Below, piece by piece: positions 14,001 to 17,000 of a stretch of 58,089 nucleotides of DNA (its first letter is position 1; every line of letters begins with the position of its first letter). Position numbers: made by a program. This DNA comes from Candidatus Omnitrophota bacterium. Lineage in GTDB: Bacteria; Omnitrophota; Gorgyraeia; Zapsychrales; Fredricksoniimonadaceae. The stretch spans positions 1-58,089 of the forward strand of contig CAIVRE010000028.1 in the NCBI GenBank assembly GCA_903908245.1. The letters run 5' to 3'.

Positions 14001-17000
14001 GGAGAAGTGCGGCAAAAGCGTCTTTAGACTTGGCCGTCTCCCCCAAAAGATCGGCAATGACCCCCATATTAAAAAGCGCATCAAAACGCGTGCGGTCAAC
14101 CGACCAGACAGAGGCGAACGCGTCATAAGCCTCGGCATTCCTGCCCAAACGGCCATAAAAAACCCCCAAAGCAAAAAGAAGCTCGGGGTCCCGGGGCGCC
14201 ACATGAAGCTTTTCTGTATATTGCTTGACCAGAGCCGTATATGCGGCCTTTTTATTGCCCTCAAGGACAGGATTAATATCTTCGCGCGCAGGCATCGCCT
14301 CGTAAACACGCACCGCCTTTAAATACTCGCCGTTGTCTGCCAATGCCTTTCCAAGCGCGATCCGATAATTCGGGTTGCAATCATGCAGTTGGACCGCTTT
14401 CCTGAAATGATCGATCGCCAGGTCGATCCTGCCCGTCTTGACATACACGGATGCCAGCGCATATTCGATACGGGAATTCCTGGGGTCGTTCTTCAGGGAA
14501 TTCTGCAGCACCAGCAGTTCATTGCCCGCGTAAATATTCTGCTGAACAAGCATCAGATAAAGAAAAACAATGAACCCGCCGGCCGCGATCTTCACCGCTT
14601 TAACCGACAAGACCTCCTTGCGAACAGCCGTATCGGCCGCCAGGACCAGAAGAATAAAGACCGGGATGCTCGCCAGGTACATGAAATGTTCCGCCAGCGA
14701 AATGGCCGACGGATATGCACCGATGGATGTCACCACCTGGGAGATCGGGAACAGCTCGGCCCAGAACCATACAATACAGAAAAGGACCAGCTTCGGCATC
14801 CGGCAGACATAACGCACGAACAACACCAAAAGGCTCAAATAAACACCCAGCGTTATCCAGACCCGCGGATCCCTGAAAGACTCATAGACCACTCGCGCAC
14901 GGTCAAAATACAGGTTCACCGGAAAGAAAATAAGCCGGATATAAGTGAACACCCCGTTCAAAAATGTCGTAACGCCCAACGCCATGAGCGACAACGACGG
15001 CCAGGGGAACGGGACAGTGAGGCGCATCAAATGATGGATAAAAAGATACCCTGCCACGACCAGCGCCAACGGCCACAGGCGCACCAGCGATCCCGCGCTC
15101 TTTTTCGCGACAAGGAGCCAATACAACGCCGCCACCACGATGAACATCCCCGCCGACTCCTTGCAAAGCAACGCCAGGGCATAACAGCCCGACATCAGAA
15201 CAATATCCCTCAGGCGCCCGTCACGGATATATCGAAGAAGAAAATAAAAAGCGGTCAAAACGAATAATGCGCACAAAAGGATGGCCCGGCCCGATACATT
15301 CCCCACCGCCTCCCAATGGATCGGATGAACGGCGAACAACACGCTCACCCAGAACCCGCGCATACGGTCATGGAACAACAGTCCACAAACCAGAAAAACA
15401 AAGAACGCATTAAGGATATGGATAAAGACATTATCCAGGTTATAAAAGAAATAATTAAGCCCGAACACGCGATATTCCAGCGTATAGGACACATAGACCA
15501 TCGGACGGTAATAATCTTTCTCCACCTTGAAATAAGTCGAGGTAAAAAAACGGGGAATATTGGCAAGGTCGCGGATCTCGACATTGCGGATGATCGAGAA
15601 TTCGTCATCAAGGTTCTTGAACGGGCTATGCAGCATGAACGAATAGGCAGAAAGGGCCAAAACACCAAGGAGCAACAGGACGATAATATTGGACTTGAGG
15701 ATGGAAGAAAAGAAGTTCGTCATAGATATGGAAAACACCTGCCGTTGACCGGCAGGTGTTTTTTATCTCTTTTCCCTGAGAACACTAAAAAGAAAGAGAT
15801 AAAAAAAGCTGACGAAAGGAATTGAACCCTCGACCCGCGCATTACGAATGCGCTGCTCTACCAACTGAGCTACGTCAGCGTAAATGGAGATTTTTTATAC
15901 CACACCTTTTCAACGCTGTCGAGCATGATTTTCTATACGCGGGAAAGAACGGCAGATTGTTCACAAAGCGCCCCTGACATCAATGTCCATTTATCAGGCC
16001 AGAAATAATACCCCCCGACCAAAGAATCCCCCGAGGTCAGGGCAATGCCTTCACTCATGCTGCTTTTTTCTCTTTTGAGCCCCAAAAACTCCAGTCTGCC
16101 CAGGAAATCGTACACCCAATCCTGGATCTCCCTGCGATCATCGCCAATAAAGGCAATGGAATCAACCCCTTCCAGGACAGCCGCGCAGGCTCCAATGGTC
16201 TTTACAAGCTGATACGACAAAATGTCCCTGGCAAATACCGCCTTCGGGCCGTCACGGACAATAAGCTCTGAAAACCCCAGTGGCTCTCCAAGCAAGGCCG
16301 TGAACCCGCTTTCCTGCGATAACACCTGATGGATCCTTTCCAGGGAATATCCCGCGGCCAATAACTGAAAAACGATCGAAGCATCGATCGAACCACAACC
16401 GCCCTTGGAAAGAATGCCGTCAAAATCCGAAAAACCACAACTGGTCATGACCGGCCTGCCGTCTTTAAACGCCACAACATCCGTACTGTCGCCCAAAAAG
16501 ACCGTAATGCACCTTGAAGCCGGCACGCCGCGGATCAACGCAAGCCGTTTGGCCGTCCATTCATGAACAAGGCCGTTGCGGCCGCATTTCCAAAGCCCAT
16601 CCTCAATGCATTCAAACGGAATGGCATACAACCGGGCATGCTCCGGCATGTTACAATAAAGATCCGGATCGCCAAGGATGACATGCCGGCTGTCAGCCAG
16701 ATACTGAGAATAAAAATTAACAAGCTCCCGCATCACGGCATCCGTATCCCCCCCGAAACAGGGGACCGCCGCGCCTGGCCTGCTGTTGCGTACCAGATAC
16801 CCGACCATGCTGACCTCACGCCCGTCGATAACCTGCAACAGCCTTTTCTTGAACAGTCCGGCCTCCCGCTCCATGCCCTGCGCGATGGTCCGGTCATTAT
16901 CTCTAAGGCAAAAATGAATGCCCTCTTTGTCAGCATCCAGCAGCACGATCATTTTTTCTCTCCCAGGATCCGGCCTCCTTCAAGGCAGATCATCAGTTCT

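Follow-up and report, generated by a model that had tools for sequence, protein, structure and literature searches.

What could be the role of an acetate kinase paralogue that has lost its active site, when its gene overlaps the end of the gene for an intact acetate kinase? This question is posed by a locus on contig CAIVRE010000028.1 of a Candidatus Omnitrophota bacterium (assembly GCA_903908245.1), of which the whole stretch of 58,089 nucleotides analyzed here is referred to as the window. Acetate kinase is a textbook homodimer and a candidate for the ancestor of the kinases of the ASKHA superfamily. The original prediction, made from the sequence alone, described behind ackA an intact open reading frame (ORF) of 339 aa that begins in an ATGA overlap, and both the ORF and the overlap were read from the sequence as described. 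We use AckX as a working name for the family of dead acetate kinase paralogues to which the product belongs. AckX is a pseudoenzyme, as had been predicted: all of the catalytic and substrate-binding determinants are gone, yet its orthologues have intact frames in a conserved gene order and evolve under purifying selection. It is thus no decaying copy, and as a member of a family it is no isolated case either. The original prediction did not take in three features that alter the picture, namely the Entamoeba-like type of the partner kinase, the spread of the family over many phyla, and its usual occurrence in a trio with a degenerate FolE2-like protein, which this genome has lost. As regards its role, we lean towards AckX being a non-catalytic partner that would pair with the upstream kinase via domain II, the second of its two ASKHA domains. 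The locus matters beyond this genome: a dead paralogue accompanies every acetate kinase with an extended PHOSPHATE2 loop (hereafter extended-loop kinase) that was examined, and which phosphoryl donor these kinases use has been under question since 2017.

The assignment of the window AckX to the acetate kinase family (PF00871) is based on its profile score and on its AckA fold. It scored 87.1 bits on the Pfam Acetate_kinase profile (cut-off 22), with a match confined to profile positions 131-357, and 79.6 bits on TIGR00016 (cut-off 293.4), which places it outside the functional acetate/propionate kinases (EC 2.7.2.1); the neighbouring ackA product scored 379 and 383 bits on the Pfam and NCBIfam acetate kinase profiles. 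When the window ORF was aligned to M. thermophila AckA and to 150 family representatives, every one of the catalytic motif replacements listed in the original prediction was reproduced. The PHOSPHATE1 loop NxGSSS (Asn7, Ser10-12) reads DADKEG (within LLDADKEG), GHRxV reads GYLV, GFHG reads GRNG and TRSG reads KGGCG. The PHOSPHATE2 motif is VFLGD-STD, as opposed to CHLGTGGAS in the partner kinase and HLGNG in canonical enzymes, and the ADENOSINE motif is FIGDD, with a three-residue deletion, as opposed to FTDDIGVG in the partner and GIGEN in canonical enzymes. The PTNEE (PTEEE) motif that bears the Mg ligand Glu384 has become PDKW. Among individual residues, Arg91 is replaced by Leu, His180 by Asn126, His208 by Phe, Asn211 by Asp and Arg241 by Gly185, and substitutions also affect Phe179 and Pro232 of the acetate pocket. 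To this list one retention can be added, as Asp148 of M. thermophila AckA is kept as D95, the sole surviving catalytic residue. The window AckX has thus lost the residues by which nucleotide, acetate and Mg are bound and phosphate is transferred.

The further claim that the protein is AckA-like along its length held at the level of the fold and not at that of the sequence profile. Sequence alignments of the window AckX to AckA span domain II only, in keeping with the partial PF00871 match, whereas both ASKHA domains are present in the AlphaFold2 (AF2) model. That model, built from a 99-sequence alignment, had a mean predicted local distance difference test (pLDDT) score of 88.4 and a predicted template modelling (TM) score (pTM) of 0.88 (a 14-sequence alignment gave only pLDDT 51), and its top Foldseek matches were all AckA or TdcD structures (TM 0.74-0.83), the best being Entamoeba histolytica acetate kinase (ACK; 4h0o_B). 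The window AckX is ~65 aa shorter than canonical AckA. Its domain I is shrunken: alignment with orthologues indicates that ~22 aa are absent near residues 57-68, where pLDDT also dips, and identity to the orthologue at locus L001 is 36% in domain I and 61% in the rest of the protein. Two other identities were rejected. Butyrate kinase models gave 29-36 bits (cut-offs 222-289) and AckA structures outranked Buk2 in Foldseek, and a recent tandem duplicate of the neighbouring ackA is at odds with an identity of just 24% and with the position of AckX in an old, separate clade.

Homology searches returned 18 proteins at 46-61% identity to the window AckX, all from metagenomes or Omnitrophota metagenome-assembled genomes (MAGs), as well as hundreds of homologues at ~30% identity; together with the dN/dS ratios given below, this marks the ORF as more than an open frame due to chance. 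A far larger group, of ~340-370 aa proteins, emerged when 1.84 billion representatives were searched with a profile, and such a search gave 311 matches at E<=1e-20 in a set of 5.8 billion proteins. These proteins are labelled "hypothetical protein" by NCBI and "acetate kinase" by JGI, and literature searches brought up no paper on an inactive paralogue of acetate kinase or on its link to FolE2 described below, nor, apart from PMC5517563, anything relevant on PPi-dependent ACKs of bacteria. A genome scan, which used an alignment of 25 closer sequences, located 56 AckX loci in MAGs of more than 15 phyla, including Auribacterota, Sumerlaeota, Omnitrophota, Myxococcota, Ignavibacteriota, Bacteroidota, Spirochaetota, Planctomycetota, Kiritimatiellia, Verrucomicrobiota, Lentisphaerota, Elusimicrobiota, Actinomycetota, Acidobacteriota/Aminicenantes and Latescibacterota. 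The family has derived motifs of its own: (D/E)PxPP for NxGSSS, GYxLxHGG for GHRxVHGG, (D/E)TAFF for DTAFH, GGxGL for GFHGxS, LGD-xTN for HLGNGxS, TGCGD for TRSGD and YD(K/R)W for PTNEE. Several of these are found in the window protein (GY for GH, (D/E)xAFF, the short LGD loop, GCG for RSG and D(K/R)W for NEE), which scored 334 bits on the AckX hidden Markov model (HMM) versus 83 bits on the AckA HMM.

Some loci depart from this picture. At L095 (Endomicrobiales; 3501-4530), L097 and L098 the AckX or kinase matches are split in two pieces, which may reflect frameshifts or assembly errors. A third kind of paralogue, deep-branching and ~360 aa long, lies behind HLG(T/S)GGSS / FTDS(L/I)G kinases at L016 (G256), L018 (G308), L019 (G199) and L024 (G285), and probably also in G051, G097, G137, G228, G263, G271, G273 and G372. 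It has lost PHOSPHATE1, PHOSPHATE2 and ADENOSINE while keeping GFHG and the Arg91- and Arg241-like residues, and may be a semi-degenerate intermediate; there was no FolE2-like gene in the ~1.4 kb flank of these loci and no pta in the ~0.2 kb upstream flank.

The kinase that precedes AckX is of a particular type. In the window it is the only acetate kinase of the genome, with pta directly upstream, and its PHOSPHATE2 motif carries a Thr and an extra Gly. Wherever AckX-linked kinases were typed, the PHOSPHATE2 motif was HLG(T/S)GG(A/S)S, in which Thr takes the place of Asn211 and a Gly is added, and the ADENOSINE motif was FTD(D/S)(I/L)G instead of FT(A/G)GIGEN. The second-best PDB match of the window kinase was the E. 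histolytica enzyme (EhACK, 4h0o). The HLGTGG/FTDD motif class has been described in four Anaerolineaceae and in Entamoeba, and was considered possibly dependent on pyrophosphate (PPi), or else in need of a donor other than ATP or PPi (Dang & Ingram-Smith 2017, PMC5517563); the portions of that paper available to us make no mention of a companion paralogue.

In the Omnitrophota sample this kinase type was invariably accompanied by AckX. A DNA-pattern search for CHLG(T/S)GG in 401 Omnitrophota genomes gave matches in 22 genomes, versus 3 for a reversed control, and all 21 of the real CHLG[TS]GG kinases had an AckX-profile match 0.6-0.9 kb downstream on the same strand. The 22nd match, in G026, was set aside as probably due to chance, that genome being without any acetate kinase match. 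Conversely, no paralogue lay downstream at any of the 18 canonical (HLGNGCS/FTAGIGEN) ackA loci that were inspected. As the genomes are related, these counts serve as a description and do not amount to a statistical test. In other phyla, as mapped by tblastn, an ackA match was directly upstream of AckX at 53 of the 56 loci (two of the remaining three were cut short or ambiguous, and L083 had a 342-nt gap), and at 48 loci the kinase was identifiable as the HLGTGG type. The window AckX, directly downstream of and overlapping an HLGTGG/FTDD-type kinase, conforms to this arrangement. Within the family to which the window genome belongs, 13 of 14 other sampled genomes had no acetate kinase match at all and pta-ackA-ackX was confined to the genus of the window (G000, G219), a distribution suggestive of patchy gain or loss.

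Outside the window's clade, the kinase-AckX pair is almost always followed by a gene for a ~264-aa protein that matches PF02649 (FolE2); its place is ahead of the pair in Aminicenantes, Acidobacteria and Polyangiaceae. The FolE2-like protein is 55-82% identical across phyla and scored 59-65 bits on the FolE2 model against a cut-off of 215. Its metal and catalytic residues appear to be gone, given that YPA stands for the CPC motif and FGQLS for HNQRS. It is the most conserved member of the unit, with a dN/dS ratio (omega) of 0.04-0.10 (L037 6070-6864, L039 6177-6971 and 50 other loci). In Sumerlaeota, AckX and the FolE2-like protein are fused into a single chain of 623 aa (5001-6872 at L041, L042 and L053), with the kinase directly upstream and a 4-nt overlap between the two genes. 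The window lineage lacks the third gene: neither PF02649 nor the FolE2-like protein found a match in the 92%-complete genome, and the place behind ackX is taken by a tRNA-Thr gene. As a separate observation, a canonical pta-ackA pair, a canonical ackA alone or a pta adjoins the three-gene unit in several phyla, and both kinase types lie side by side at L070 and L090 (Actinomycetota), at L057, L059 and L062 (Bacteroidota/Ignavibacteriota) and at L086-L088 (Acidobacteriota/Aminicenantes).

The Sumerlaeota fusion joins AckX to the FolE2-like protein and not to the kinase, and this brings up the reading that AckX acts without pairing with the kinase at all, as a homodimeric ligand sensor or as a scaffold for Pta or, in other lineages, the FolE2-like protein, with adjacency reflecting co-regulation. 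Also in favour of this reading are the conserved ligand pocket at the dimer interface of the AckA family (PMC3475010), the general retention in AckX of the Arg178-, Lys312- and Tyr313-like residues, and the translational overlaps that connect pta, ackA and ackX in the window. We nevertheless judge such a role unlikely, because AckX is tied to one clade of kinases, as the counts above indicate, because the link to the kinase survives the loss of the FolE2-like gene and holds with or without an adjacent pta, and because co-regulation alone leaves unexplained why AckX is absent from canonical pta-ackA operons.

Phylogenetic analysis (90 rows, IQ-TREE quick, LG+C20) placed all AckX rows on one side of a single branch (99*) and the extended-loop kinases in one clade (99*). 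The window protein falls in a 9-row, pta-linked clade without the FolE2-like gene (96*), which is nested inside the main 35-row AckX clade (98*). The groupings of the AckX and kinase trees are congruent, including the cross-phylum pairs Bacteroidota/Brevinematales and Polyangiaceae/Aminicenantes, so the two genes move together. In five rows of the window's clade (L009, L011, L012, L013 and L015), among them that of the same-genus genome G219, AckX is 229-248 aa long and consists of domain II only, and the Asp148 equivalent is replaced by Asn, Lys or Gln. Such short forms were encountered only where the lineage has no FolE2-like gene. They remain coupled to ackA, their starts abutting or overlapping its stop. 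Assembly or frameshift artefacts were considered as a source of the short forms and rejected based on L009, L011 and L012, where the position of the short ORF start at the ackA stop leaves no room for a hidden N-terminal domain. Since L009, from the genus of the window, is nested among long forms (99*), the N-terminal domain was lost at least twice, independently.

All nine clade members and the 18 metagenome homologues have intact frames, whereas frameshifted or absent orthologues would have spoken against the original prediction. Conservation was also evident from omega, which was 0.18-0.34 for AckX versus 0.09-0.13 for the adjacent kinase. In the trio-type loci AckX gave 0.18-0.34, the kinase 0.09-0.12 and the FolE2-like protein 0.04-0.10. 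The window copy itself gave saturated or undefined synonymous divergence (dS 1.2-2.8 where defined) against its nearest relatives, at which dN/dS is unreliable, and the estimates for its clade therefore rest on closer pairs: 0.23 for L099-L100 (dS 0.37) and 0.19 for L001-L100 (dS 0.82), with 0.13 for the kinase. By domain, long-form AckX gave 0.19-0.25 for the N-terminal and 0.15-0.25 for the C-terminal domain, and the short forms L012-L013 gave 0.22. AckX is thus under clear purifying selection that is approximately twofold weaker than that on the enzyme.

Selection on both domains of the long forms, together with the near invariance of Cys94, Asp95, Cys186 and Asp190 over 99 family members, would also be expected if AckX were a neofunctionalised enzyme that uses the old cleft, with the Asp148 equivalent, its neighbouring Cys and the Cys of the GCG motif as the candidate site. 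We regard this as very improbable, given that the short forms, without domain I or the Asp, stay intact and under selection, that half an ASKHA fold has no cleft, and that PHOSPHATE1, PHOSPHATE2, ADENOSINE and the acetate pocket are gone. That AckX had a function in the ancestral trio and is in the window lineage a remnant heading for loss after its FolE2-like partner vanished is suggested by the long stem branches of the pta-linked clade (0.48 + 1.03, versus 0.27 + 0.24 for the partner kinases that these genomes encode), by the 22-aa deletion and low identity in the N-terminal domain of the window copy and by the repeated deletion of that domain, and is likewise hardly to be expected with frames intact throughout the clade, an omega of 0.19-0.23 within it, short forms included, and a start-stop overlap with ackA that persists after the domain has been deleted.

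We return to AckX as a non-catalytic partner of the kinase, for which the following mechanism is proposed. In AckA structures the helix at the C-terminus packs onto domain I. What keeps the two AckA protomers together is domain II, with domain I protruding (PMC3475010). AckX would be made together with the upstream extended-loop kinase through translational coupling, and may bind the kinase via its retained domain II, by the surface used in the AckA dimer, the predicted outcome being an asymmetric assembly that has a single active site. The FolE2-like protein of most lineages, a T-fold protein without a metal site, would contact the domain I side of AckX. In the window lineage the kinase has come to lie behind pta, the FolE2-like gene has disappeared and domain I of AckX is in the process of being lost, being shortened in the window copy and absent from sister species. 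That domain I serves the FolE2-like contact is suggested by the C-terminal position of the fusion, by the helix packing and by the decay of domain I only where the FolE2-like gene is missing. The constant presence of domain II, the existence of short forms and the invariable pairing in Omnitrophota are consistent with the heterodimer considered plausible in the original prediction, and they suggest that the dimer-forming half of AckX is alone sufficient for its role. An effect of AckX on kinase activity or on the use of phosphoryl donors may also be supposed.

Several points weigh against this proposal. The putative contact between AckA and AckX was deduced from domain II retention, coupling and co-occurrence, and congruent trees and adjacency prove co-inheritance, not interaction. 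Among characterised enzymes the partner kinase has its closest relative in Entamoeba ACK, which according to the literature is active in recombinant form without such a partner, and AckX is therefore not essential for the folding or basic catalysis of this kinase type. The residues of the AckA interface pocket are only partly kept in the window copy, where Arg178 is replaced by Lys, Asp227 by Met, Met230 by Cys, Arg309 by Gln and Tyr313 by Thr. In addition, the long branch of the window copy could mean a weakening constraint.

A more far-reaching version, in which extended-loop bacterial acetate kinases are obligate asymmetric heterodimers with AckX, the dead protomer tuning the donor or gating the flux of acetyl-phosphate, is possible, though on balance we consider it doubtful. 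If true, the dead protomer would tune the use of ATP versus PPi/inorganic phosphate (Pi) or of another donor, the domain-II-only proteins of Omnitrophota would be the minimal subunit, and one of the oldest kinases would have a quaternary class that had gone unrecognised. Pseudoenzyme partner subunits as such are an already known kind; what is new is the two-gene, pta-linked variant without the FolE2-like gene and its natural truncation series. The window lineage amounts to a natural deletion series, with the FolE2-like gene gone and domain I shortened or deleted, and the fact that the gene stays intact, coupled and selected despite these losses places the selected function in domain II. The ackA-ackX pair is moreover small and easily expressed (404 aa plus 235-339 aa).

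The features of the window locus are compiled in the table below.

Coordinates of the ackX locus and of the parts of its product within the window
Feature	Position	Strand	Remarks
PAS-GGDEF gene	19164..20120	-	18 nt 5' of pta
pta (phosphotransacetylase)	18144..19145	-	3' end shares 20 nt with the ackA start
ackA, partner kinase, 404 aa	16949..18163	-	ATG at 18163; catalytic residues intact
Shine-Dalgarno-like GGGAGAG within the ackA 3' end	16958..16964	-	5 nt 5' of the ackX ATG; read from sequence
ATGA overlap of ackX ATG and ackA TGA	16949..16952	-	plus strand reads TCAT
ackX, catalytically degenerate acetate kinase paralogue, 339 aa	15933..16952	-	ORF without internal stop
ackX residues 1-94, shrunken ASKHA domain I	16671..16952	-	from alignment and secondary structure of the model
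ackX residues 95-320, ASKHA domain II, AckA dimer-forming body	15993..16670	-	best conserved; sole part of the short forms
ackX residues 321-339, C-terminal helix	15936..15992	-	helix 321-338 in the model; PDKW for PTNEE
tRNA-Thr(CGT)	15807..15879	-	53 nt 3' of ackX, same strand

The gene order XRE-cupin / PAS-GGDEF / pta / ackA / paralogue recurs with the 4-nt overlap in the loci of the close homologues, the PAS-GGDEF gene having an equivalent position in L001 and L004. The overlap of pta and ackA is also present in relatives (L001 and L002: pta 3808-4809, ackA 4790-6004), and the ATGA start-stop overlap of ackA and ackX was found in 11 of 15 related loci, with TAAATG in two further loci. The tRNA-Thr(CGT) gene occupies the site behind ackX at which the third gene of the trio usually sits. 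A scan found no terminator-like site between ackX and this tRNA gene, and the two may be co-transcribed. Elsewhere in the window is a gene for a membrane H+-pyrophosphatase (43092-45179, minus strand; PF03030, 594 bits), by which PPi-based energy conservation would be available if the partner kinase forms PPi, and its presence in the genome makes a link to PPi metabolism plausible to ask about.

In comparison with known systems, the window locus is closest to the ACK/AckX/FolE2-like unit, with which it shares an AckX-clade protein encoded behind an extended-loop kinase with a start-stop overlap. It differs from that unit in having no FolE2-like gene, in having pta directly upstream, in that the kinase is the only one of the genome, and in that AckX has a degenerate or deleted domain I and sits on a long branch. 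With canonical AckA (M. thermophila 1G99/1TUY), the window AckX shares the two-domain ASKHA fold (TM 0.74), a homologous domain II (24-30% identity) and Asp148, whereas the residues for phosphoryl transfer, Mg, nucleotide and the acetate pocket are all replaced. It is the partner kinase, not AckX, that resembles the Pi/PPi-dependent ACK of Entamoeba histolytica (PDB 4H0O) and the bacterial group of Dang & Ingram-Smith, having the extra PHOSPHATE2 Gly (HLGTGG) and the ADENOSINE Asp-Asp (FTDD); unlike EhACK, which works alone and has Met and Glu at the corresponding positions, the window kinase keeps Ile and Asn and is paired with an ackX gene. A further comparison is with TsaB (YeaZ), the ASKHA-fold paralogue of TsaD and its partner in the TsaD-TsaB-TsaE complex (PMC9654439). 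Although TsaB belongs to an unrelated ASKHA branch and pathway (tRNA t6A), and its complex is experimental whereas we infer the pairing of AckA with AckX, it is an ASKHA paralogue that acts as the partner subunit of its catalytic relative, and as such it provides a precedent for the mechanism proposed for AckX.

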